Shown: one piece after another, positions 10,996 to 62,038 of the stretch
Position numbering within the stretch: position 1 is the first letter of the stretch
Layout of the letters: the number at the start of each line of letters is the position of its first letter
Assembly: GCF_016903815.1 (NCBI RefSeq)
Contig: NZ_CP069973.1
Strand: one strand, 5' to 3'
DNA from: Escherichia coli
Lineage (GTDB): Bacteria > Pseudomonadota > Gammaproteobacteria > Enterobacterales > Enterobacteriaceae
Length of the DNA stretch: 64,000 nt
The notes under the pieces: model-generated
Seen by the model: only the letters and a program-made list of their open reading frames with translations
Database searches by the model: none
What the model was told of the DNA's origin: nothing
Translations under genes and position numbers: made by a program

Positions 10996-12153
10996 ATGCT
11001 CACCGTTAAGCAGATTGAAGCAGCAAAGCCGAAAGAAAAACCATACCGCCTACTCGATGGTAATGGCCTGTACCTTTATGTCCCTGTGTCAGGGAAAAAG
11101 GTATGGCAGCTTCGCTACAAGATTGACGGTAAGGAGAAAATCCTGACTGTCGGAAAATATCCGCTTATGACTTTGCAGGAGGCAAGGGATAAGGCATGGA
11201 CTGCGAGGAAAGACATCTCGGTTGGCATCGATCCGGTAAAAGCGAAAAAGGCTTCGTCTAACAACAATTCCTTTAGTGTGATTTACAAGGAATGGTATGA
11301 GCACAAGAAGCAAGTCTGGTCAGTAGGCTATGCAACTGAACTTGCAAAAATGTTTGATGACGACATTTTACCTATCATCGGCGGCCTTGAAATTCAGGAT
11401 ATTGAGCCTATGCAACTGCTGGAAGTAATCCGCAGGTTTGAAGATCGCGGTGCAATGGAGCGAGCCAACAAAGCACGCAGAAGGTGCGGCGAGGTTTTCC
11501 GTTACGCTATTGTCACCGGCAGGGCTAAATATAACCCGGCACCTGACCTTGCTGACGCCATGAAGGGATACCGCAAGAAGAACTTCCCGTTTCTTCCAGC
11601 AGACCAGATCCCGGCATTCAACAAAGCACTTGCAACATTTTCAGGAAGTATCGTATCGCTCATTGCGACCAAAGTTTTACGCTACACAGCCCTAAGAACG
11701 AAAGAGCTTCGTTCCATGCAATGGAAGAACGTCGATTTTGAAAACAGGATTATCACCATCGACGCCAATGTGATGAAGGGACGCAAAATTCATGTGGTCC
11801 CGATGTCAGACCAGGTGGTTGAACTTCTCACTACGCTAAGCTCAATCACCAAACCAGTCTCAGAGTTTGTTTTTGCCGGGCGCAACGATAAGAAGAAGCC
11901 AATCTGCGAGAACGCGGTATTGCTTGTGATCAAACAAATCGGCTATGAAGGTCTGGAAAGCGGTCACGGATTCAGGCATGAATTCAGCACAATTATGAAC
12001 GAGCACGAATGGCCTGCTGACGCTATTGAAGTGCAGCTGGCACATGCCAACGGCGGATCTGTGCGCGGTATTTACAACCATGCTCAGTATCTCGATAAGC
12101 GCAGAGAAATGATGCAGTGGTGGGCGGACTGGCTTGATGAAAAGGTGGAGTGA
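10996..12153 (+). CDS. intS: P4-family tyrosine integrase (IntS-like), prophage integrase adjacent to argW
   Basis: ORF 10960-12153; start set at MLTVKQIEAAKPK...; C-terminal catalytic domain with HxxR-like 'HGFRHEF' and terminal Tyr region; matches my memory of IntS of the argW-associated CPS-53 prophage. Confidence 0.9.
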   Translation: MLTVKQIEAAKPKEKPYRLLDGNGLYLYVPVSGKKVWQLRYKIDGKEKILTVGKYPLMTLQEARDKAWTARKDISVGIDPVKAKKASSNNNSFSVIYKEWYEHKKQVWSVGYATELAKMFDDDILPIIGGLEIQDIEPMQLLEVIRRFEDRGAMERANKARRRCGEVFRYAIVTGRAKYNPAPDLADAMKGYRKKNFPFLPADQIPAFNKALATFSGSIVSLIATKVLRYTALRTKELRSMQWKNVDFENRIITIDANVMKGRKIHVVPMSDQVVELLTTLSSITKPVSEFVFAGRNDKKKPICENAVLLVIKQIGYEGLESGHGFRHEFSTIMNEHEWPADAIEVQLAHANGGSVRGIYNHAQYLDKRREMMQWWADWLDEKVE

Positions 12154-49457: not shown

Positions 49458-49753
49458 CATCCTCGCACTCGCGGGGATTTCTTTTATCTGAACTCGCTAC
49501 GGCGGGTTTTGTTTTATGGAGATGATAAATGCACTTCCGAGTCACTGGTGAATGGAATGGAGAGCCATTCGACAGGGTTATAGAAGCAGAGGACATCAAC
49601 GACTGCTATAACCACTGGATGATATGGGCGCAGATAGCGCATGCAGACGTAACCAATATTCGAATTGAAGAACTGAAAGAACACCAAGACGCCTGATGGC
49701 GGTTTTTTATTGCCTGATTTGCAGGTTCGATTCCCTATTCGGAGATAGCACTC

Positions 49754-49954
49754 ATGCAACACGAACTACAGCCTGATTCACTGGTTGATTTGAAATTCAT
49801 CATGGCCGATACTGGCTTTGGTAAAACCTTCATCTATGACCGGATTAAGTCCGGCGACCTTCCTAAAGCCAAAGTTATCCACGGACGAGCAAGATGGTTA
49901 TATCGTGACCATTGTGAATTTAAAAATAAGCTCTTAAGCCGCGCCAATGGGTAA
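49754..49954 (+). CDS. AlpA-family excisionase / DNA-binding regulator (Xis) for prophage 1
   Basis: 66 aa, HTH; ends 74 bp before the att repeat at 50028; in the circular phage it would sit directly upstream of attP and the int gene at 10996. Confidence 0.65.
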   Translation: MQHELQPDSLVDLKFIMADTGFGKTFIYDRIKSGDLPKAKVIHGRARWLYRDHCEFKNKLLSRANG

Positions 49955-50027
49955 AATAGCGGGTAAAATATTTCTCACATCTAAAAAACACCATTCCAAT
50001 CAATCCCCTGCCGCTTCAAGTAGATGT

Positions 50028-50043
50028 CTGCAGGGGACACCAT
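50028..50043. repeat. att core repeat (copy of argW 3' end); right junction of prophage 1 and left junction of island 2
   Basis: 16-bp CTGCAGGGGACACCAT identical to argW positions 10820-10835. Confidence 0.8.
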
Positions 50044-50206
50044 CCCGCTGTACACCAACGTCTACCATTGTCTATAAATCCCATGTAAACATATAAAAAT
50101 AAAGAGATTTTATTCTCATGACGTCCATTTCCGTCTATTGAAATCAAGTAAATCTATGGGGCATAATTAGGGGCATTGCTGGTTCGATTGTATATGTGCC
50201 CCCAAC

Positions 50207-51493
50207 ATGTCCAGAAATACCCTCAACAAATTAACAGACCGTCAGTGCAAAGCAGCTAAGCCACGAGACAAAACTTATAAATTGTCTGATGGTGGTGGTC
50301 TTTATCTTGAAGTATCCCAGACCGGGTCGAAGTATTGGCGAATGAAGTATCGCCGCCCATCAGATAAGAAAGAAGACAGACTTGCTTTTGGTGTATATCC
50401 AACCATTAGCTTACAAGACGCCAGAGAAAAACGAGACAACGCCAAAAAGTTGTTAGTCAAGGGGATAGATCCCAAAGCAGAGCAAAGAGCAGCAAAAGCA
50501 GAAGAAAAAGGCGCATTCACTTTTGAGACAATAGGACGTCAATGGGTTGAAAGCCACCAGATGTGGAACGAAGACCACCGAAAACGCGTACTTAGAAGCC
50601 TTGAAATGTATATTTTCCCTCACATTGGCACTTCGGATATTCGCAAACTGGAGGCGATGACAATTTTACCTTTGTTTAAGAAGGTAGATGACGCCGGGAA
50701 ACACGATACAGCCAACCGACTTAAACAACGAGTTAAGGACATCATACATAGCGCCCGTCTGAGCGGCATTAAGACAGAAATCATCACGAATGATCTCGAT
50801 GTCCGGTTAATGCAATATGAAACTAAGCATCATGCCGCACTACATCCCAGAGATTTACCAGACTTTTTCACTCGATTGGGCAGCTTTAAAGGTAATCCTC
50901 TTACCCGCCTTGCCATTGAGCTAACCATGTTGACATTTGTTCGTTCAAGCGAGTTAAGGTTTGCCCGTTGGAAAGAGTTTGACCTTGATCGGGCTGAGTG
51001 GATTATCCCTAAAAAAAGAGAGCCTATCGATGGTGTGAGGTTTTCCACCCGTGGCACAAAAACGGGAAAAGACGAACATATCGTGCTTCTTAGCCGTCAG
51101 GCTGTTTCTATTGTAAAGCAGTTGAGAGAACTAAGCGGAAGCTACGATGTTGTGTTTCCGAATGAAAGAAACACCAAAGGCGTGATGAGTGAAAACACGG
51201 TAAACAAGGCATTACGCTTAATGGGCTATAACACGCAAGAGGACGTAACTGGACATGGATTCCGTGCCACAGCCTGTAGTTCCCTGATGGAGTCCGGTTT
51301 GTGGCAGGAGGACGCAGTAGAGCGCCAGATGAGCCACAAAGAATATAAAGACGTTAAAAGAGCCTACAAGCACAAGGCTGATTACTTAGAAGAGCGCAAA
51401 CTAATGCTTCAATGGTGGGCAGATTATCTGGACGCCAATCGAGAAATACATATAAGCCCTTACGAGTTCGGAAGGAGAACACGCCGTGACTAA
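50207..51493 (+). CDS. P4-family tyrosine integrase (second, distinct integrase)
   Basis: 428 aa; N-terminal MSRNTLNKLTDRQCKAAKPRDKTYKLSDGGGLYLEV... (P4-int arm-binding type) and C-terminal catalytic 'HGFRATA' region; sits next to the att repeat. Confidence 0.9.
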   Translation: MSRNTLNKLTDRQCKAAKPRDKTYKLSDGGGLYLEVSQTGSKYWRMKYRRPSDKKEDRLAFGVYPTISLQDAREKRDNAKKLLVKGIDPKAEQRAAKAEEKGAFTFETIGRQWVESHQMWNEDHRKRVLRSLEMYIFPHIGTSDIRKLEAMTILPLFKKVDDAGKHDTANRLKQRVKDIIHSARLSGIKTEIITNDLDVRLMQYETKHHAALHPRDLPDFFTRLGSFKGNPLTRLAIELTMLTFVRSSELRFARWKEFDLDRAEWIIPKKREPIDGVRFSTRGTKTGKDEHIVLLSRQAVSIVKQLRELSGSYDVVFPNERNTKGVMSENTVNKALRLMGYNTQEDVTGHGFRATACSSLMESGLWQEDAVERQMSHKEYKDVKRAYKHKADYLEERKLMLQWWADYLDANREIHISPYEFGRRTRRD

Positions 51494-52241
51494 GATGACA
51501 GGACTAGATGCGTTTTATAACGAGTCAGAAGATAAAATCTGGTTTGGTAATCTGATCAGCGAACTGGCAAGACTAAACAATGAAAATGAAAGAATGATCG
51601 CTGCCGCTATCTTAAGTAACTACAGATTGAGCAAAGCTAAACCAGATACTTTAGGGGGGCTGGGCTTTTATCAGTTCGATTGGGTATCAGGTTTTACAAC
51701 TAATGACGACTTTGAAAAGCAGTGTGTGGAGTTTTTAGGTCTTCTGGCTATGGGGCATGAATACAGGGAGAGCCCGATACCGGGGGAAGAAGGGACTTTC
51801 AACGTTAGGAAAGGGGAAGACTTTTTATATCACGATGATGAGGATGATTGGTATGGGTCTTACGATTCGTTTTATTTCAAGCGCTCCGAGGTTGTGAACT
51901 TCTTCCCAGAACTGGATATGAATGTTCCAGATAACGAACCAGAAATTGGAGCACTGTCAAAAAAAGTAGAAAGAGAACAAAACTGGAGAGGAAAAGATAC
52001 GGCTTTAAAGATGATCGCCGGAATGGCGATTGCCTTATTTGAATCAAGCAAAGATTTCCATAGTGGAGGAAACCTTAGTATCAATAGGGTTAGTGCCCAA
52101 GTAATAGAAAACAACATAATATTCGGGAACGATGAAGACAGCGATACCCACCCAGATACATTTCGGAGATTGCTAACGAACGCTTTGGATAAGTACGCCC
52201 CCAAATTTAAGAAAAAAGCAACCAAAAAGCGTCCAAAATAA
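51486..52241 (+). CDS. Hypothetical acidic protein, overlapping the integrase stop
   Basis: 251-aa ORF overlapping int2 by 8 bp; no recognised motifs. Confidence 0.45.
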   Translation: MTKMTGLDAFYNESEDKIWFGNLISELARLNNENERMIAAAILSNYRLSKAKPDTLGGLGFYQFDWVSGFTTNDDFEKQCVEFLGLLAMGHEYRESPIPGEEGTFNVRKGEDFLYHDDEDDWYGSYDSFYFKRSEVVNFFPELDMNVPDNEPEIGALSKKVEREQNWRGKDTALKMIAGMAIALFESSKDFHSGGNLSINRVSAQVIENNIIFGNDEDSDTHPDTFRRLLTNALDKYAPKFKKKATKKRPK

Positions 52242-52397
52242 AGGAAGGATGTTCCCAAATTGTGCGTTAGAACTAAAAAATAACGCCCAATTTGGGGTAA
52301 TTCTATTCCCAAAAATTTTTTCTCCAAATTCACAGAAAACTTAAAAAAACAATGATTTACTATCTCACATAGTCAAGCAACGTATTACGAGGTAGAT

Positions 52398-52589
52398 ATG
52401 AAAAAGTCGCTGATTCGGCTATCTGAGGTTTTGAAACGCACTGGCTATAGCAAGGCGTGGGTATATGCTCTGATGAGCCGAGGACAATTCCCCCAATCAG
52501 TCAAGATTGGTGCTCGCGCAATAGCTTTTATTGAAAGCGAGATCGATGACTGGATCGATCAACGTATAGCCGAATCGCGTAGTAACTAA
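52398..52589 (+). CDS. AlpA-family transcriptional regulator / excisionase (island 2)
   Basis: 63 aa; 'RLSEVLKRTGYSKAWVYALMSRGQFPQSVKIGARAIAFIESEIDDWI' resembles the AlpA HTH family. Confidence 0.65.
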   Translation: MKKSLIRLSEVLKRTGYSKAWVYALMSRGQFPQSVKIGARAIAFIESEIDDWIDQRIAESRSN

Positions 52590-52637
52590 AGAACAGAAAC
52601 AAACAGGATACAAACAATACGTTATTAGGTATTAAGA

Positions 52638-52829
52638 ATGCAGTTGAAACCTACCAATCAAAAGCTGAACGTAACCCATGTTGATTTTGAAACCTTCGCG
52701 GCACTGATTAGATCAGAGCCACAAAAGGTGAGCACCAGCACCTGGGTTTATGATGTGAAATCCACCAGCGGTGGAAAAGCTATCGGCATTGCCTCTGGCG
52801 ATGATTACTTAGTAATAGATCTGATTTAA
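52638..52829 (+). CDS. Hypothetical small protein
   Basis: 63-aa ORF; position only. Confidence 0.3.
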   Translation: MQLKPTNQKLNVTHVDFETFAALIRSEPQKVSTSTWVYDVKSTSGGKAIGIASGDDYLVIDLI

Positions 52830-52910
52830 TCGCACAAAAATTGTAGAGTAATTTGGGGAGACAGGAAGTCTCCTCCATATTACATTTTGGTACAACAGTA
52901 AGGGAATAAA

Positions 52911-53105
52911 ATGATTAATTACCTGACCGCTAAAGACGCAGCAGAATATCTTGGCGTCTGTCTGTCACGCTTCTATCAGTTAAAGCGATATATCCGAAGC
53001 TTTCCTCCCTATATAAATCAGACCATCAATGGACGCAAGCGCCGGGTGTGGCTTGCCTCCAGCCTTGATCAATTTGCCGACAGATTTCTGGGGGGACGAA
53101 AATGA
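52911..53105 (+). CDS. Small HTH DNA-binding protein
   Basis: 64 aa; 'LTAKDAAEYLGVCLSRFYQLKR' looks like an HTH; ATGA overlap with the next ORF. Confidence 0.4.
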   Translation: MINYLTAKDAAEYLGVCLSRFYQLKRYIRSFPPYINQTINGRKRRVWLASSLDQFADRFLGGRK

Positions 53106-53488
53106 GCACTCTTACACGCTCTCAGGTCGCCGCGAATATACGCGATATCCTACTAAGTGGCAGGAAGCTTACCCCAAAAGAGTTTGACGACATATTAAGG
53201 AAAGCCGGAAATCACGAACGTAGTCGCGTTTTAACGCTGTTACGCAACGATTGGGGAATTCCTGTTGAGCAGTTTAAAACAGAGGCGTATCACGTCACAG
53301 AACGCAATTTAGAAGCATACCACAGCGATAAAGACGAAACATTGAAGATCTGGAGGACGAACGCCAGATATGTAAAGACATTGCGTAAGGTAAACATAAC
53401 GTTGTCGTTGTTGCGTGGGCTGGTGGGTAAAGTGCCTGAAGACACGCTTAGAACTGTTTACAAGGGTATTGAAACCAAATACCTGTGA
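53102..53488 (+). CDS. Hypothetical protein
   Basis: 128-aa ORF coupled to the upstream HTH gene. Confidence 0.4.
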   Translation: MSTLTRSQVAANIRDILLSGRKLTPKEFDDILRKAGNHERSRVLTLLRNDWGIPVEQFKTEAYHVTERNLEAYHSDKDETLKIWRTNARYVKTLRKVNITLSLLRGLVGKVPEDTLRTVYKGIETKYL

Positions 53489-53556
53489 TTGACAAAGCAG
53501 AAAGCCGACTTTGCGAGAGTCGGCTTTGAAGCAATTGAAATATATGAACTTTACAC

Positions 53557-54609
53557 ATGGAATTATACGATAAAGACGCGAGTCTATCCACAAAATCACA
53601 AGCCGTAATCAATCACATCAATGGTCGCACATTAGCTTATGTGAGATCAGTTACGCACAAACGTAATGAATTAAAGGCGGAGAATAAACGCCAATCATCA
53701 AAGGCTAACCACTGCATACCACCAGCTTGGACAAAGAAGAAATGGCGTACAATGAGGCGAGCTTTGTTTACTCTGGATGTCGAATCAACTAGTGGTATCC
53801 CCTACTCCTTTACCTTCAGACCCGTTAAGGGAACAACGCCAGAGAAATTCAACAAAGCGTTAAAGGCACTTACCAGATGGTTGACTTCGAAAGGCAATCA
53901 GTGGGTTTACGTCATGGAGTGGGCTCAACACCAGTCAGAGCCGCATGTACACGCAATAATTATGGTGAACGAAAGAAGCATTAATGGGCAAGCAGGCAAA
54001 ATTGTCAGCAAATGGGTAACACTGGCAAACAATGCAATCCCATCAAATGTTCCTCCCCAGTGGGATCTAGATTTGAAAGGTCAGCAATATTCAGAGCCTA
54101 CAAGGTGTATAGGTAAACAGATTGATTACATGGCAAAACCCGAAACTAAGTTAAATGACTTTAATAGAGAGGCGAGCAAGAGCCTATATGATTGGTCAGA
54201 TGCCAACGTTTGGGGTTATTCGAATGGCTGGGCGCGGCATGAGATAAAAAAAGAAACACTTTCTATCACTGGCTTTCATGCTGTAAGACGCATACTAAAA
54301 GCCATTCAGGCATCAAGGAAAGACAACTACAAAGTTAAGCGACAGATACAGCGTACATTGAAACGACAAGACATAAATCGCTCACCAATCACCCCGTTCC
54401 AAGCACCGTTAATTAGCAAACACGATTGGGATTTATCAGTGATAGCGGTCACCAAAGAGGCAGAGACAGAGCGCAGGGAGTTACTATCCTCACAGACAAT
54501 AAACTCGAACAAAGTACAAACCCACCCGCTGTTAAGGATGTTAAGAAAAGCACGAGTGAGAGCATCCAGAGCCAGAAGAGAAAGCGGAGGTTATGACCAT
54601 TACTACTAG
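53557..54609 (+). CDS. Putative replication initiation protein (HUH-type Rep)
   Basis: 350 aa; candidate HUH motif 'PHVHAIIMV'; basic C-terminus; followed by GC-rich short repeats (54670-54730) in an AT-rich context. Confidence 0.5.
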   Translation: MELYDKDASLSTKSQAVINHINGRTLAYVRSVTHKRNELKAENKRQSSKANHCIPPAWTKKKWRTMRRALFTLDVESTSGIPYSFTFRPVKGTTPEKFNKALKALTRWLTSKGNQWVYVMEWAQHQSEPHVHAIIMVNERSINGQAGKIVSKWVTLANNAIPSNVPPQWDLDLKGQQYSEPTRCIGKQIDYMAKPETKLNDFNREASKSLYDWSDANVWGYSNGWARHEIKKETLSITGFHAVRRILKAIQASRKDNYKVKRQIQRTLKRQDINRSPITPFQAPLISKHDWDLSVIAVTKEAETERRELLSSQTINSNKVQTHPLLRMLRKARVRASRARRESGGYDHYY

Positions 54610-55407
54610 TAGTGACAGATCGTGACAAGGCAGAGCAAAAAACGACCAATATAAGAGAAATATCCCTGCCCAATCGCCAAAAGCGCGGAGCGCGGAGCGC
54701 GGCAAGCGCCGCGAGAGGCGCAAGAAGGCGAACCTATCCATTGAAACGGTCAGAAGAGCGCATCGCGCTCGATGACCGAAGTCCCCACTAACACCGTTAA
54801 CGAAAGATCAAAGTCTTAGAAAAAAATGACGTTTCTTTGAAGGGCTTCCATCCGTAAAAATCAAATTTTGAGATAAAGTACTTATAGAAATTAATCACTC
54901 TATAAGAGTGAGTTGACGTGAGTTTGAAGTGAGCAACATATTAAAAATATATATAATAATCAAACATATAATAACAACTACTGAGCAAAAATCACCAGAA
55001 AACAACGTCAACGTAACGTCACTCTGTAAGCACTTTTTCAGTCACTTTTTGGGTTGAATACACGTATAAATCCCCAACCATGAAATTTGAGCGCGTAAGC
55101 ACGACTCTGAAAGGCTTTTTATCTTTTAACCATTTAATATACCTGAGGTATTGAAGAAGATTCTGAGACATATACTAGAACTTTACCGTGCACGACTAAC
55201 AACATAAACGTTATATTTATATATAAATCAATGAGATAAATACATCCCCATCCAAAAAACAAGCATAACGCAAAATTGCGTTATCAACTTAAAAGGTACG
55301 ATTGAATCTGACAGTCTGCTCTGAGCGAAATGTGGGCACGTTCACCATAAGTCTCCAGATTGAAACGAAATGATAGTGTTAAATGTTCGATAGTTACTTT
55401 TCTAAGC

Positions 55408-56400
55408 TCAACGTTCGTAATAGTAATCCGACACCTCAGTAAAATCTATTTCCTCCCTAGAAAGTAATGATTCCATCTCATCTAGTTTATCGATTTGAGG
55501 CAAAACACTTGTTGGTGAAATCACAACATTAAAGTCCTCATTATATCGGTGACCTACCCTTGTGAGCTCTTTACCTAATTGCAACAATATATAATCACGT
55601 AAAATAAGTTGATTCCGTCTAAATCGAATAAGACGATAGTAATGGAAGAAATCAGAACATTTTGATGAATCATAATTTCTACCATTCCACCCGGTTTTCC
55701 TCGTAGCTCGGAATAATGCTTGCTCTTGCGTATTTTTCCAAATGCTAAAATCAAAGTGACTTTTCGGGTTAGGATTTTCGTATGTTGCTTGAGGATAAAA
55801 ATTAGTAACACCAAATTGATGCTTGTCAATGATCTTTAAAGTCCGATTTTGTTCAGACAACATCCGCCTTAAGGACCTAGGAATTTCGAAACGCATTAGT
55901 TTGTTTTTATCCAAGATTCTTAATTCTCTTGGAAGCATCTCATGATCCCGTTCTAAATATCTTTCACACCGTTTCGGCACATACTGAAAATACACTGAAA
56001 AAAAACAAAATATATTATCAGAAACGAGAGGAGTAATATGTATTTTTTCTTGCTCAGGAACGTTTTGAACAAAATAGTATGCCGTTCCTTGCCAAATCAA
56101 CGATTGCGCTACTGCCTCCACCAATTCACGTATTGTTTCATCTACCGAGTATTTCCTATATCTAGCTTGTAAATTTCCAAACATTTTACGTATGAGTTCT
56201 TCGTCGTTAGTTTCGACTTGAAACAAATTGGTATCACCGTGATTTACAAAATTAAAAACTCTAGCAAAATCCTCATAAAACATCCTTTGATAGAAACCTG
56301 GTCGTTCATTCTTAGACTTGGTCAATAGTCTATCAACAAAACTTAATTGCTCAGGATCGACGCTATAACCGTAAAGGGGTATATTCTTGATAATTTTCAT
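55408..56400 (-). CDS. Uncharacterised soluble protein, second gene of a candidate two-gene accessory (defence?) operon
   Basis: 330-aa ORF, ATG at 56400 with AGGA 7 nt upstream; ATGA overlap with the upstream gene stop; AT-rich; no family motif recognised by eye. Confidence 0.6.
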   Translation of the reverse strand: MKIIKNIPLYGYSVDPEQLSFVDRLLTKSKNERPGFYQRMFYEDFARVFNFVNHGDTNLFQVETNDEELIRKMFGNLQARYRKYSVDETIRELVEAVAQSLIWQGTAYYFVQNVPEQEKIHITPLVSDNIFCFFSVYFQYVPKRCERYLERDHEMLPRELRILDKNKLMRFEIPRSLRRMLSEQNRTLKIIDKHQFGVTNFYPQATYENPNPKSHFDFSIWKNTQEQALFRATRKTGWNGRNYDSSKCSDFFHYYRLIRFRRNQLILRDYILLQLGKELTRVGHRYNEDFNVVISPTSVLPQIDKLDEMESLLSREEIDFTEVSDYYYER

Positions 56401-58862
56401 TCAAAATCCTTATCGTATTCCACGCCAAAACGACGAGCCAACTCACTAACATGGTAATCGATCTTGAAGTCAATTTGCTCGAGTTGCGGGAAAATTTCGA
56501 GAGCACAAAAGAGATGCGATGCATCTGAATGGGAGTTTAAGAACTCTCTGACAACTTTGTTCGTATGAGATTTCCCTCGATTCATTCCCATTTGATCGCT
56601 AAAGCCATCATGTCTTGCGCGGCGCTCAAATTCCATTTTCCAGTTAAGACGAATCATATCTCTCGGTGATGCGCACAAGCTGAAATTGCGCGGATTTGAA
56701 AGAATCATCATTCTCTTCAAATACTGCTGTTTGTTGGGAACAGACTCGAGCCAAGACTTAAACCTATCAAGTACTGTTTTAGATAGTTTTGCATTATCGA
56801 AATAAGCACTGTAAAGGATAGCAAAACCTAGAACTGACATCAGATCGTTGATCGCGGATGAAAGGAGATGCAGTCGAAACTCGTTGTTTATATCGAGTTT
56901 CGGATCTACAAATTTGGTATCTGATGCCAGCAATGAGAGAACCATGAACATAGGGAATACCTTGCTCAGTTTATTTTCATCATTCTGTTCAAGCGCATGT
57001 ATACATTCCTCAGCCAACTCAAAATATATCTGTCCAAAATGATCCGGTAGTTCATCATCTTGCTCTTGTTCAATGATATGTCCCACAATTTCCACCCTAC
57101 CAAGAATAGCTATAGCTTCATCCTGTGTAACGACAAACTGTTTGAGCATTTCAGCAATATTAATTTCTGGTAATGCGTATAGCTTTTCAGAGTAGTGCTC
57201 GTACTTTCTGTATCTCTCCAAGAGCAGAGAAAGTTCATTAAACCAATGGGGAAACTTCAAATGATTATGTAGGCTAGCGAGAACGACTTGCGTTGCGGCT
57301 TCCGGCATCTTCATGTTTATCAGTGAGTTAACGAAATCTGGAACCATGTTTACGTGAAAATCGCATACTTCTGGCAGAATTTTAGAATATTGTTGTAATA
57401 ACTTCTGAACCGCCAACTGCTGGACGTACTTTGGTTTGGATAATCTCTGTCCTTCAATCTCTTTTTCGAATTCGATACGTTCTACGATAAAGGCCAACTC
57501 AACCTGCAGAAAAGCAGGCAAAGTGTGTAGAGAGGTCTCTGTCCAGATATCATCTTTAAAGAACTGCTCCAATTCTTTCTCAAAAGTAATCATGCGGCGT
57601 AACATTTCAAGGCAAAGATTGCTGCCTAATGCAGCCCATGCATCCGCAATTCCAACTTTTATCACCTTTTCCTCAAAATAATTAACGACATCAGACGGTG
57701 TAAAGGCTTTTTCAATGATCGTCTTCATTTTCCGAAGTTCACGTATACCAATATCGAACTGAAACTGTTGTGCATAAGTTAATATACGAGATGAGAATAG
57801 ACTGATGAGATCCAACCCGAGCTTGAAATCACCGGCTTTGAATGCAAGTTCAATATGGCCTACCAACCTATTGATAATTTCATTCTCTAACCAAAGATAA
57901 TTTGGTTCTTCTTCAACCGTTAATTGGCTCCTTGTTTTTAAAGCAATGGATGTTACACTGTCGCCAGCTAAGAACCATTGCTTATGTTTTATTCGTCTAG
58001 GGAACCAGTAACTTTGATAATCAATTCTGTGTTTCTGATTAAGGTAATGAAGAAGTAATGCCGAATAAACATTACTGAGAGCAGGTAAATTATCTCCGAG
58101 TCCTACTTTTTCACATATCAGGCGATCATCAATGTAGTTTAACTGCTCAAAGGCCAAATGTGCGGCTTTAGAGTGATGATTAGCTAAAGATACTGAATTC
58201 TTGGGATTAGACGCACCTTCGATGTGTCGTGCAATTCGTGGGAGTATTTCACTTCGGGCTAACTGATTTAGGTCAAAAAAATTGAATAATCTTTGACCTA
58301 ATGGGAACAGAGCTAAGGAACTAACAAGTGTCAGCAATGTTCCCATTGCATAAACGAAAAGACCGGGTTCAACCCCGAACAAGTGGAGAGCAGTTGCACT
58401 AAGACAAAACACCGCAGAAAGCACTAAAGTCCGCGAATACACATTACCTACCTGCTCGGTAGTAAGCATTTGTATAATATCTCGCCGAAGTCTGGTATAT
58501 CCTGTACTTAGAATGATACCTATTGTAGCAAAGTATATTGAAAATATAGCGGTAAGTATCTGTGCGTACAACCTAAGTTGATCAATATTAAATTTTTTTT
58601 CATCATAGCTAAGAGGATGAAGCAAAATCGTATTATTCCGAATATAATCTTCAACAAAACCCAGTGCAAATAACGTTAATATGACCCATAACAAATTTTT
58701 TAAACCTACCAACGCAAAAGACATAAAAACATGAGCGTTAGACTTAGCTTTAAAAACAGACGTACGATGTATGTATGACGCACGTTCTAAAATAAATCTA
58801 ACCCTCACAAGATCTGTTCTTAATTTCCAGAACCACTTTTGAGAAATAAGCCAAACCTTCAT
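56397..58862 (-). CDS. Uncharacterised large membrane-anchored protein (four N-terminal TM helices plus ~600-aa cytoplasmic domain), first gene of the candidate operon
   Basis: ORF 56397-58874 (TTG) with first ATG at 58862 (about 821 aa); hydrophobic segments VFMSFALVGLKNLLWVILTLFALGF, LYAQILTAIFSIYFATIGIILST, RTLVLSAVFCLSATALHLF, LFVYAMGTLLTLVSSLALFPL; no Walker A, HNH or other obvious motif found by eye. Confidence 0.6.
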   Translation of the reverse strand: MKVWLISQKWFWKLRTDLVRVRFILERASYIHRTSVFKAKSNAHVFMSFALVGLKNLLWVILTLFALGFVEDYIRNNTILLHPLSYDEKKFNIDQLRLYAQILTAIFSIYFATIGIILSTGYTRLRRDIIQMLTTEQVGNVYSRTLVLSAVFCLSATALHLFGVEPGLFVYAMGTLLTLVSSLALFPLGQRLFNFFDLNQLARSEILPRIARHIEGASNPKNSVSLANHHSKAAHLAFEQLNYIDDRLICEKVGLGDNLPALSNVYSALLLHYLNQKHRIDYQSYWFPRRIKHKQWFLAGDSVTSIALKTRSQLTVEEEPNYLWLENEIINRLVGHIELAFKAGDFKLGLDLISLFSSRILTYAQQFQFDIGIRELRKMKTIIEKAFTPSDVVNYFEEKVIKVGIADAWAALGSNLCLEMLRRMITFEKELEQFFKDDIWTETSLHTLPAFLQVELAFIVERIEFEKEIEGQRLSKPKYVQQLAVQKLLQQYSKILPEVCDFHVNMVPDFVNSLINMKMPEAATQVVLASLHNHLKFPHWFNELSLLLERYRKYEHYSEKLYALPEINIAEMLKQFVVTQDEAIAILGRVEIVGHIIEQEQDDELPDHFGQIYFELAEECIHALEQNDENKLSKVFPMFMVLSLLASDTKFVDPKLDINNEFRLHLLSSAINDLMSVLGFAILYSAYFDNAKLSKTVLDRFKSWLESVPNKQQYLKRMMILSNPRNFSLCASPRDMIRLNWKMEFERRARHDGFSDQMGMNRGKSHTNKVVREFLNSHSDASHLFCALEIFPQLEQIDFKIDYHVSELARRFGVEYDKDFE

Positions 58863-59087
58863 TATATCAATCAAGTGATACCTGCCTTCTCATCTCTACA
58901 TGCAACATAAAAATGCTTACTATGGTGGCAAACAAAATCAAGAATCATATGTTTGAACACTTTTTACGCACGAATTATCCGGTGTAAGATACTTATAGTC
59001 AAATGGCAGGGCTAATCTCATCTGTATTGAGCTATTAACAGCCATATGTAAGACTAAGAAACGCGCCCAGCAAAGGCGCGTTCTGCA

Positions 59088-59264
59088 TCAGGTAAGTTTG
59101 CTGGGGTCTACGGTTTCCATCCAATCTGGAGCAATTCCCAAACGTTCCGCTATCTCTTCGTTGGTCATGTCTTCAGTTGAGAAATTAGCCAGAGAATCGT
59201 TAACTTCAGGATAGTCAGGGGAGAGTAACAGGTATTCCCGCAACGCTTTCAGATCTTTTTCCAT
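59088..59264 (-). CDS. Small hypothetical protein with downstream terminator
   Basis: 58-aa ORF (MEKDLKALREYLLLSPDYPEVNDSLANFSTEDMTNEEIAERLGIAPDWMETVDPSKLT), not in the ORF track; followed on its strand by hairpin aacgcgcc/ggcgcgtt (59056-59086). Confidence 0.3.
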   Translation of the reverse strand: MEKDLKALREYLLLSPDYPEVNDSLANFSTEDMTNEEIAERLGIAPDWMETVDPSKLT

Positions 59265-59431
59265 TTTAACGCTCCTTGTTTATTGACAGTCGAACGATGG
59301 TGAAGATTCTTGCCATCTCAAGTACAGGCAAGAAAATCCACCAGAACACCAAATTATCTCATAAGGTTAAATCGGTGTCGGGCTATTTCTTTCGGCTAGG
59401 TGAGTGTACCGCCTTAACCACCGGCAATTAT

Positions 59432-59560
59432 CATTGTCTCAATTGGGTATACCGTAATGACAAGGTGATACAAAGTCTCAATAGGGTTGTATAGGAACAT
59501 TTTGACTACACAAAATGCATTATGTATCATTTGCACTTATATTCACAACCCTATTGAGAC
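59432..59560. promoter_or_regulatory. Putative recombination (res-like) site with perfect 16-bp inverted repeat upstream of the serine recombinase
   Basis: gtctcaatagggttgt (59475-59490) and acaaccctattgagac (59545-59560) are perfect reverse complements separated by 54 bp; a related half-site 'tgtctcaattggg' lies at ~59437-59449. Confidence 0.5.
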
Positions 59561-59566
59561 AATGCA

Positions 59567-60193
59567 ATGAACGTTAGAATTTACTGCCGAGCATCAACTG
59601 AGGGGCAACACGCTGATCGAGCACTTACCAGCCTACGTGAATTTTCAAAATCAAAAGGCTGGCAGATTGCAGGAGAGTATATAGAAAATGCTAGCGGGGC
59701 GAAGCTTGAGCGCGTAGAGCTTATGCGGCTATTGTCTGAAGCCCAGTCCGGCGATCTGTTGCTAGTGGAAGCTATAGATCGTCTGAGTCGCCTAGAACAT
59801 AGCGCATGGGTCGAACTGAAAGATACGCTCAACCGAAAAGGGTTAATCATCGTATCAATGGATTTACCAACGAGCTGGCAGATGGTCGAGATGGCAGGCA
59901 ATGACCTAACCAGCGGCATCCTGAGAGCCGTAAATGCCATGTTGATTGATATCCTTGCCACAATGGCACGGCAGGATTACGAAACACGTCGTAAACGCCA
60001 ACAGCAAGGCATTGAGCGAGCTAAAAGCGAAGGAATATACATTGGCAGGGAGAAAAATCAGGAAGCCCGAGAGATCGTTAGAGAGATGTTGGAGCAAGGA
60101 GTAAAACCTGAACTCATCATGAAGGCAGCAGGAATCAGCCGAGCGACTTACTACCGTATAAAAAGTGAGCTGTCAGTCGTAAAATCAGAATAA
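59567..60193 (+). CDS. Serine recombinase (resolvase/invertase family)
   Basis: 208 aa; N-terminal catalytic region 'VRIYCRASTEGQ' with the nucleophilic Ser; C-terminal HTH 'ISRATYYRIK'. Confidence 0.85.
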   Translation: MNVRIYCRASTEGQHADRALTSLREFSKSKGWQIAGEYIENASGAKLERVELMRLLSEAQSGDLLLVEAIDRLSRLEHSAWVELKDTLNRKGLIIVSMDLPTSWQMVEMAGNDLTSGILRAVNAMLIDILATMARQDYETRRKRQQQGIERAKSEGIYIGREKNQEAREIVREMLEQGVKPELIMKAAGISRATYYRIKSELSVVKSE

Positions 60194-60327
60194 CCTTTGA
60201 AAGGTCGTCAGGCTTGTTTCATCTGCTAAAAGCCAGCATTTCTGACCATAATACCTGGGGGCACCTACTGGGGCACCCACCAAAATCGAAAGACAAATAA
60301 GTTATAATTCAATCTGTTAGTTTACTT

Positions 60328-60350
60328 TTCGATTCCTGCAGGGGACACCA
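60328..60350. repeat. att core repeat (third copy of argW 3' end); distal junction of island 2
   Basis: 23-bp TTCGATTCCTGCAGGGGACACCA identical to argW positions 10812-10834. Confidence 0.8.
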
Positions 60351-60790
60351 GATACCCTTCAAACCAAATCTACCTTCACCCCGTAAAAGATGGGTTTGGC
60401 GCACACTAGCCCTATATCTACTCATTTTTACTGCAACAGGTTGAAATCTCAGCACTGTCAGAAAGCGCTGATGACTAAACAGCCCTGGGCCGGGCGATGT
60501 AACCATCATACAGAATCCTGATAGCGAAATATGGCGTGACTCGATACTTCACTCTGCAATGCATTCCTTGATGAATTCGCAGGCCCGTGATACTCGGGAC
60601 AGGTCGCTGAATGACGACAATGTCCTGGAAATCAGCGAACCGCGTATCCGGAGTACATTTGAGCGACTGTACCAGAACATGAATGAGGCGTTTGGATTAG
60701 GTGATTATTAGTTGGGCTAAGCATTTTTGTATTATTATTTTCCGGTTGAGGGATATGGAGATATCGACAACAACCGGAAAAAGTTTACGT

Positions 60791-62038
60791 CTATATTGCT
60801 GAAGGTACAGGCGTTTCCATAACTATTTGCTCGCGTTTTTTACTCAGGAAGAAAATGCCAAATAGCAACATCAGGCAGACAATACCCGAAATTGCGAAGA
60901 AAACTGTCTGGTAGCCTGCGTGGTCAAAGAGTATCCCAGTCGGCGTTGAAAGCAGCACAATCCCAAGCGAACTGGCAATTTGAAAACCAATCAGAAAGAT
61001 CGTCGACGACAGGCGCTTATCAAAGTTTGCCACGCTGTATTTGAAGACGGATATGACACAAAGTGGAACCTCAATGGCATGTAACAGCTTCACTAATGAA
61101 ATAATCCAGGGGTTAACGAACAACGCGCAGGAAAGGATACGCAACGCCATAATCACAACACCGATAAGTAATGCATTTTTTGGCCCTACCCGATTCACAA
61201 AGAAAGGAATAATCGCCATGCACAGCGCTTCGAGTACCACCTGGAATGAGTTGAGATAACCATACAGGCGCGTTCCTACATCGTGTGATTCGAATAAACC
61301 TGCATAAAAGACAGGAAAGAGTTGTTGATCAAAAATGTTATAGAAAGACCACGTCCCCACAATAAATATGACGAAAACCCAGAAGTTTCGATCCTTGAAA
61401 ACTGCGATAAAATCCTCTTTTTTTACCCCTCCCGCATCCGCCGCTATGCACTGGTGATCCTTATCTTTAAAACGCATGTTGATCATCATAAATACAGCGC
61501 CAAATAGCGAGACCAACCAGAAGTTGATATGGGGACTGATACTAAAAAATATACCGGCAAAGAACGCGCCAATAGCATAGCCAAAAGATCCCCAGGCGCG
61601 CGCTGTTCCATATTCGAAATGAAAATTTCGCGCCATTTTTTCGGTGAAGCTGTCAAGCAAACCGCATCCCGCCAGATACCCCAGGCCAAAAAAGAGCGCC
61701 CCCAGAATTAGACCTACAGAAAAATTGCTTTGCAGTAACGGTTCATAAACGTAAATCATAAACGGTCCGGTCAAGACCAGAATGAAACTCATACACCAGA
61801 TGAGCGGTTTCTTCAGACCGAGTTTATCCTGAACGATGCCGTAGAACATCATAAATAGAATGCTGGTAAACTGGTTGACCGAATAAAGTGTACCTAATTC
61901 CGTCCCTGTTAATCCTAGATGTCCTTTCAGCCAAATAGCGTATAACGACCACCACAGCGACCAGGAAATAAAAAAGAGAAATGAGTAACTGGATGCAAAA
62001 CGATAGTACGCATTTCTGAATGGAATATTCAGTGCCAT
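60791..62038 (-). CDS. cscB: Sucrose:proton symporter (oligosaccharide/H+ symporter, LacY family)
   Basis: 415-aa 12-TM protein; translation matches my memory of CscB; adjacent to cscK and divergent cscA. Confidence 0.9.
   Translation of the reverse strand: MALNIPFRNAYYRFASSYSFLFFISWSLWWSLYAIWLKGHLGLTGTELGTLYSVNQFTSILFMMFYGIVQDKLGLKKPLIWCMSFILVLTGPFMIYVYEPLLQSNFSVGLILGALFFGLGYLAGCGLLDSFTEKMARNFHFEYGTARAWGSFGYAIGAFFAGIFFSISPHINFWLVSLFGAVFMMINMRFKDKDHQCIAADAGGVKKEDFIAVFKDRNFWVFVIFIVGTWSFYNIFDQQLFPVFYAGLFESHDVGTRLYGYLNSFQVVLEALCMAIIPFFVNRVGPKNALLIGVVIMALRILSCALFVNPWIISLVKLLHAIEVPLCVISVFKYSVANFDKRLSSTIFLIGFQIASSLGIVLLSTPTGILFDHAGYQTVFFAISGIVCLMLLFGIFFLSKKREQIVMETPVPSAI

Follow-up and report, generated by a model that had tools for sequence, protein, structure and literature searches.

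The interval between the tRNA gene argW and the sucrose permease gene cscB very probably preserves a non-functional, long-decayed internal fragment of a DUF4942 gene, most likely a relic of an older CP4-type genomic island at argW that is linked to the csc (sucrose catabolism) genes. The fragment occupies positions 60416 to about 60707 of the window (the whole 64,000-nucleotide stretch of Escherichia coli contig NZ_CP069973.1 that was analyzed) and lies within an argW-cscB spacer of 440 bp (60351-60790). It covers codons ~38-154 of a 280-codon gene, carries a frameshifting deletion and two nonsense codons, and drifts as neutral DNA does.

Several landmarks frame this interval. The argW gene, encoding tRNA-Arg(CCU), is an integration hotspot (10760-10834, plus strand; found by ARAGORN, with an Rfam tRNA score of 63.4 bits), and a repeat-family analysis identifies its 3' 23 nt (10812-10834, plus strand) as the att sequence. 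The distal copy of that sequence (60328-60350, plus strand), which matches the 3' end of argW at 23/23 nt and forms the right end of the second of two islands described below, directly precedes the spacer; a middle copy (50020-50042, plus strand) is degenerate, with 83% of the 23 nt but an exact 16-nt core, TCTGCAGGGGACACCA. A 16-nt match between 49719-49734, just upstream of the torI homolog, and argW positions 10805-10820 was rejected as chance. The spacer opens with a 65-nt left flank (60351-60415, no strand assigned), continues with the DUF4942 remnant, and ends at cscB (60791-62038, minus strand), an intact gene for a 415-aa transporter of the MFS type, whose 3' end points at the remnant. 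Fold prediction places a minus-strand hairpin at 60741-60783, with an 11-bp outer stem (TTTTCCGGTTG...CAACCGGAAAA), a minimum free energy of -17.3 kcal/mol (z=-3.6), and a start only 7 nt past the cscB stop codon. Its arms are mostly kept across the seven spacer alleles that we aligned; it has no canonical U-tract, and a terminator scan gave no call there. This hairpin is probably a part of the csc module, at the 3' end of the cscB transcript. No Rfam family matched the spacer region, and the folding of 60351-60560 is not unusual (z=-0.5).

The identification depends on homology found at three levels. The 78-residue conceptual product of the open frame scores 38.3 bits against the Pfam family DUF4942 (PF13708; E=1.5e-9), well above the gathering threshold of 25 bits, over profile positions 5-62 of 190; these 58 positions do not make a complete domain. 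The intact reference is WP_001280436.1 from strain UMNK88 (280 aa, from an 843-nt gene), found through tblastn of plasmid records, in which the complete domain (profile 1-190) spans residues 87-276. Searched by tblastn against window positions 60201-60900, this protein aligns through residues 76-151 with 60475-60702, at 51% identity over 76 aa (E=4e-20). A second HSP pairs residues 38-70 with 60416-60514 in a different frame, the change between the two being from +3 to +2, and includes two internal stops, shown by asterisks in IYSFLLQQVEISALSESADD*TALGRAM*. At the nucleotide level, blastn against the intact gene returns two matches of 74% identity, 60416-60503 with nt 112-199 (E=1e-11) and 60494-60694 with nt 244-445 (E=1e-31). 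The first-pass annotation, made from the letters alone, had called a gene remnant here, and the Pfam, tblastn and blastn results bear it out. That annotation had also expected homology to a protein C-terminus; similarity is found, but to the middle of the gene and the start of the domain.

The remnant is best described as two blocks on the plus strand. Block A (60416-60503; 74% nt identity) corresponds to gene nt 112-199, codons 38-67, and contains two nonsense codons in the ancestral frame, TAA at 60476-60478 and TAA at 60500-60502. Block B (60503-60707; 74% nt and 51% aa identity) corresponds to gene nt ~254-461, codons ~85-154, and so to the first third of the DUF4942 domain. The overlapping blastn HSPs meet in a decamer on the plus strand, GCGATGTAAC (60494-60503), which aligns both to nt 190-199 of the intact gene (GCGATGAAAC) and to nt 244-253 (GCAATGAAAG). 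Because this decamer aligns twice, 54 nt would have been lost between short direct repeats, together with 1 further nt, for a deletion of 55 nt and a frameshift. At the right edge, homology dies out at about 60702-60707, past an apparent 2-nt gap that was set by eye, so that the TAG at 60709 falls on the breakpoint and differs from the stop with which the gene once ended. Missing altogether are ~37 N-terminal codons and ~126 C-terminal codons (~155-280); no frame with a natural start and a natural stop is left.

Searches for a closer full-length parent were broad. Among 5.8 billion proteins, a word-indexed search turned up nothing but further copies of this fragment, the best full-length matches by phmmer among 1.84 billion representative proteins reach 53-54% identity, and tblastn on plasmids gives 52.6% at most. 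A peptide-pattern scan with six 8-residue peptides over 100,044 species-representative genomes yielded no confirmed relative of the fragment. Database proteins from short contigs sometimes join the fragment sequence to unrelated N-termini (e.g. a Rnf/Nqr-like membrane segment) or read through it in another frame; such entries probably reflect chimeric assemblies, engineered cassettes with csc or artefacts of gene calling. Judged by sequence, the remnant descends from a DUF4942 gene and is not a living member of the family, since it fails in domain completeness, reading frame, coding constraint and module context alike.

What remains open to translation is short. The frame is open from 60475, behind a TGA at 60472-60474, and an ATG at 60559 starts an ORF of 50 codons (60559-60711, plus strand; 50 aa, MHSLMNSQARDTRDRSLNDDNVLEISEPRIRSTFERLYQNMNEAFGLGDY; stop TAG at 60709-60711), which is the short open frame, ending near 60710 between the third att copy and cscB, that the first-pass annotation had noticed. 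Its remark that the frame has no plausible start holds in that nothing resembling a Shine-Dalgarno sequence precedes the ATG (by eye) and a consensus scan of 60150-60900 gave no promoter-like site, but the ATG itself exists. RefSeq (PGAP) annotates WP_223362157.1, a "DUF4942 domain-containing protein" of 60 aa, at 60529-60711 with an ATA start, and CDS features are likewise called in many genomes (WP_001316510.1 and others). Together with a frame open in 5/7 alleles, these calls are what could be said for a functional small gene of 50-60 aa. Against it, the annotated versions disagree from genome to genome (ATA at 60529 for 60 aa, ATG at 60559 for 50 aa, others of 73 and 85 aa), the CDS is absent from the annotation in ~17 of 39 sampled genomes by manual count, further stops interrupt the 50-codon frame in the SE11 and 100117 alleles, no promoter-like site or Shine-Dalgarno sequence accompanies it, the domain is present for only 58 of 190 positions, and substitutions fall evenly over the codon positions (see below). 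A functional small gene is thus very improbable. The RefSeq CDS is an annotation artefact on a pseudogene fragment, and no other stretch happens to have stayed open for as long as the 50-codon ORF, which has no function.

The substitution pattern speaks to how long the gene has been dead. Among seven aligned alleles, 90-100% identical to one another, 15.8% of columns vary over the whole spacer; the left flank (60351-60415) is its most variable part, at 27%. Within the ORF, variable sites make up 12, 16 and 10% at codon positions 1, 2 and 3, compared with 3.4, 0.7 and 12.3% in cscB. An ORF with no codon periodicity, changing at about the rate of cscB third positions, is evolving neutrally, and we find no sign of purifying selection on the fragment. 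The comparison with living genes agrees: differences at codon positions 1, 2 and 3 amount to 26, 23 and 31% against the intact UMNK88 gene and 26, 26 and 38% against the intact gene of NCTC86, while between the two intact paralogues, over the same codons, 2, 4 and 16 of 90 sites per position differ. The remnant's divergence of ~25-27% from living genes is spread over codon positions, so most of it accumulated without coding constraint. Both truncations, the 55-nt deletion and both TAA stops are common to 7/7 alleles, and E. coli alleles diverge from one another by ~9% at most; the gene was therefore broken, and dead, well before the last ancestor of these alleles. A younger change is also visible. 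One A is missing between 60400 and 60401 in the window allele and in other genomes at least 99% identical to it, and is present in the six other aligned alleles; this 1-bp deletion is lineage-specific.

Two mobile elements now separate argW from the spacer. Island 1, an IntS/TorI prophage of ~39 kb (10835-50042), carries an integrase (10960-12153) identical to K-12 IntS at 383 of 386 aa, and its last ORF (49754-49954), translated by eye, gives a protein identical to K-12 TorI. These sequences suggest a full-length relative of CPS-53/KplE1, a cryptic prophage of K-12. Its flanking genes place the junction with island 2 at the middle att copy, 50020-50042. Island 2 is an integrative element of 10.3 kb (50043-60350) with a P4-type integrase (50207-51493), a replication protein (PF23343; 53557-54609) and a resolvase-family serine recombinase (59567-60193). 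Two adjacent ORFs within it, both on the minus strand and coding for 330 aa (55408-56400) and 825 aa (56397-58874), have no Pfam match and no PADLOC match, and their products could be satellite or island cargo. The two integrase genes in the window, at 10960-12153 and 50207-51493, belong to these later elements and not to any older island, and the window holds no extra att copy to the right of the fragment.

Other strains show the junction without these elements. In SE11, DCE7, 100117 and Z0117, all island-free, tRNA-Arg is followed directly by the spacer and then by cscB, and argW itself stands where the distal att copy stands here. The spacer is accordingly the native argW-cscB interval. Both window islands inserted later, at the att core, and displaced the spacer 49.5 kb from argW. 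Different elements adjoin the same spacer elsewhere: the TorI-bearing end of a prophage in Ecol_545, and, in O55:H7 and O157:H7, an element whose resolvase-bearing right end is shared with island 2 (93.9% identity).

The first-pass annotation had taken the remnant for the 3' end of a gene, cut by an integration or rearrangement seen in the window, a reading suggested by its place immediately beside an att copy. It had also recommended comparing the argW-csc junction among strains, and that comparison, which makes the spacer older than both window islands, goes against its own proposal, as island-free strains carry the identical spacer after argW. Site-specific integration at an att core leaves the flanking spacer unaffected. 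What is matched, moreover, is the N-terminal third of the domain, in mid-gene (codons ~38-154 of 280, with the natural stop absent), and not a C-terminus. We consider a 3' end truncated by these integrations extremely improbable.

Two further sets of records touch the spacer. In the csc-positive strain F8111-1SC3 (NZ_CP024269.1), a truncated integrase gene and ISEc46 (an IS200/IS605 element with tnpA and tnpB) lie between argW and cscB; the spacer is reduced there to its last ~87 bp (window 60714-60800), the DUF4942 fragment having been lost through an ISEc46 insertion with deletion. Four Escherichia phage records (ON470589.1, ON470594.1, ON470608.1 and ON470622.1) contain the entire 440-bp spacer at 95.7-98.9% identity, with part of it labelled "A-kinase anchor protein 5." These records evidently run beyond the prophage attR into the host chromosome, which probably explains the "csc in coliphage genomes" of PMC11251922.

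The sequences flanking the remnant were compared with the ends of known islands. For 60351-60415 and 60703-60790, Smith-Waterman alignments with shuffle controls found nothing significant against the ends of CP4-type islands, against both ends of islands 1 and 2 and the ends of K-12 CP4-57 and CPS-53, or against the K-12 attR-dsdC spacer and the DUF4942-tRNA-Ser spacer; no match outlasts correction for the ~60 tests. A 23-nt match between allele 100117 and a DUF957 gene is at chance level (E=0.94). With 60351-60415 and 60708-60740 both free of matches, neither deletion endpoint is linked to known island sequence.

The distribution of the spacer resembles that of csc. Among 5426 complete E. coli genomes, a 601-nt query (60200-60800) has a match in 2672, the left piece of the spacer (60351-60420) in 2630, the right piece (60690-60790) in 2640 and cscB (60791-62038) in 2648, so that the spacer is about as widespread as cscB, where totals and not genome-by-genome overlap are compared. 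In these genomes the spacer pieces occur at this locus only, always on the chromosome, with a median of one copy and a maximum of two. K-12, which has dsdC instead of csc, shows no similarity except for the att sequence. The csc genes are known to sit at the argW recombination hotspot, replacing dsdCX (PMC11251922; PMC4366372), and the variable argW-dsdCXA/cscRAKB locus goes back to Jahreis et al. 2002 and Moritz & Welch 2006, as relayed in PMC11251922 and PMC4366372. The locus in the window is at this same site, with csc beside argW instead of dsdC and part of dsdX, and a truncated dsdX is annotated here; argW acts as a prophage integration hotspot in the published locus as it does here. A survey found the E. 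coli csc locus to be almost restricted to E. coli (PMC11251922). The open-access literature on the csc locus (PMC11251922; PMC4366372) makes no mention of the DUF4942 fragment.

Intact DUF4942 genes provide the setting from which such a fragment could come. They are found in 3983 of the 5426 genomes (median copy number 2, maximum 9) and are 85-100% identical to each other at the nucleotide level; the remnant is only 70-74% identical to these genes and so falls outside the range of E. coli's own. For the intact protein, a sequence search found no solved structure, and PADLOC has no defence model. The genes belong to a module with the order DUF932, antirestriction, RadC/JAB, DUF987, CbeA, CbtA, DUF5983, DUF957, DUF4942, and in each context inspected DUF4942 is the final gene. 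The module, DUF4942 included, closes CP4-type tRNA-associated genomic islands. UMNK88 and NCTC86 carry such islands at serX and serW; there, ~150 bp lie between the end of the DUF4942 gene and the 3' end of an intact tRNA-Ser gene, which is on the other strand. A further record has the kps capsule cluster on the far side of DUF4942. Since intact DUF4942 genes close CP4-type islands, the fragment is most likely what is left of an older, csc-linked island end. The suggestion of the first-pass annotation that the remnant marks the boundary of an older, csc-linked insertion is reasonable on the same grounds.

The likeness to these islands is partial. Like WP_001280436.1 in UMNK88, which is encoded next to tRNA-Ser and to which it is homologous in both protein and DNA, the remnant stands beside a tRNA gene that is an integration hotspot, and in all strains examined it begins 65 nt from the 3' end of argW or from an att copy, as expected of an island boundary. 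Those 65 nt do not resemble the module, no upstream module gene precedes the fragment, and its usual CbeA/CbtA, DUF5983 and DUF957 partners are absent. Orientation also differs. The remnant reads away from argW, whereas the serX/serW DUF4942 genes, in two complete-genome examples, converge on the tRNA. In those islands the toxin-antitoxin/DUF4942 end is the tRNA-proximal one; in K-12 CP4-57 the integrase end takes that place. With the serX/serW orientation opposite, a topology like that of CP4-57 must be assumed for an argW island. CP4-57 has the order ssrA, intA ... lfgA, lfgB, ypjJ, yfjZ, ypjF, attR/psaA, with the integrase beside the tRNA-like gene and the antirestriction/RadC/DUF987/toxin-antitoxin module reading towards attR, which fits the orientation of the remnant. 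It is a structural analogy only, as CP4-57 has no DUF4942 gene and is located at ssrA, not argW.

For the events that preceded the last ancestor of the alleles, we infer both order and nature. An old CP4-type island would have occupied argW. A deletion at its tRNA-proximal side would have taken everything up to codon ~38 of the DUF4942 gene, and when csc became joined to this site, the 3' half of the gene would have gone as well, along with the old attR, with dsdC and with the 5' part of dsdX. What remained drifted neutrally inside the 440-bp spacer; the IntS/TorI prophage and the 10.3-kb element came to argW only afterwards. Neither an integrase nor an attR nor any further gene of the module is left from the presumed island.

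An almost equally good account holds that the fragment was passenger DNA, either a pseudogene already decayed beside cscB in a donor or a piece from a composite island whose csc cargo lay past DUF4942, brought in with csc in a single transfer. It differs from the argW island relic only in where the decay took place. That the spacer is present in 2630-2640 genomes to 2648 for cscB and absent from the dsdC-type locus of K-12 suits a joint arrival, and the kps cluster is a precedent for cargo past DUF4942. The remnant lies far beyond the 85-100% range of the E. coli paralogues, which suggests that it may never have been part of a resident E. coli island, and its mostly neutral divergence of ~25%, about 3 times the largest divergence between alleles (9%), puts most of the decay before the alleles' ancestor. 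On the other side, no donor has been found, the scan of 100,044 species-representative genomes gave no copy of the peptides, and the E. coli csc locus is nearly confined to E. coli according to the published survey (PMC11251922). We give this single transfer of a passenger somewhat less than an even chance, and retain the relic of an argW island as the preferred explanation.

Taken for itself, it is a commonplace pseudogene fragment from a variable locus that is already well known, and of little significance. Two practical points follow: the "DUF4942 domain-containing protein" CDS that RefSeq shows beside cscB in many genomes should be treated as a pseudogene fragment, and the fragment can serve as a csc-linked neutral marker. 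It also hints, without proving it, that a CP4-type island once stood between argW and csc. We suggest tentatively, and with rather more doubt than belief, that it could be the last piece of the vehicle of sucrose catabolism, a CP4-type argW island from a lineage with a DUF4942 other than that of E. coli, which carried cscRAKB as distal cargo and has since been lost almost completely by deletion. If true, this would mean that csc was acquired well before csc-positive E. coli diversified, and would indicate the mechanism by which it came.
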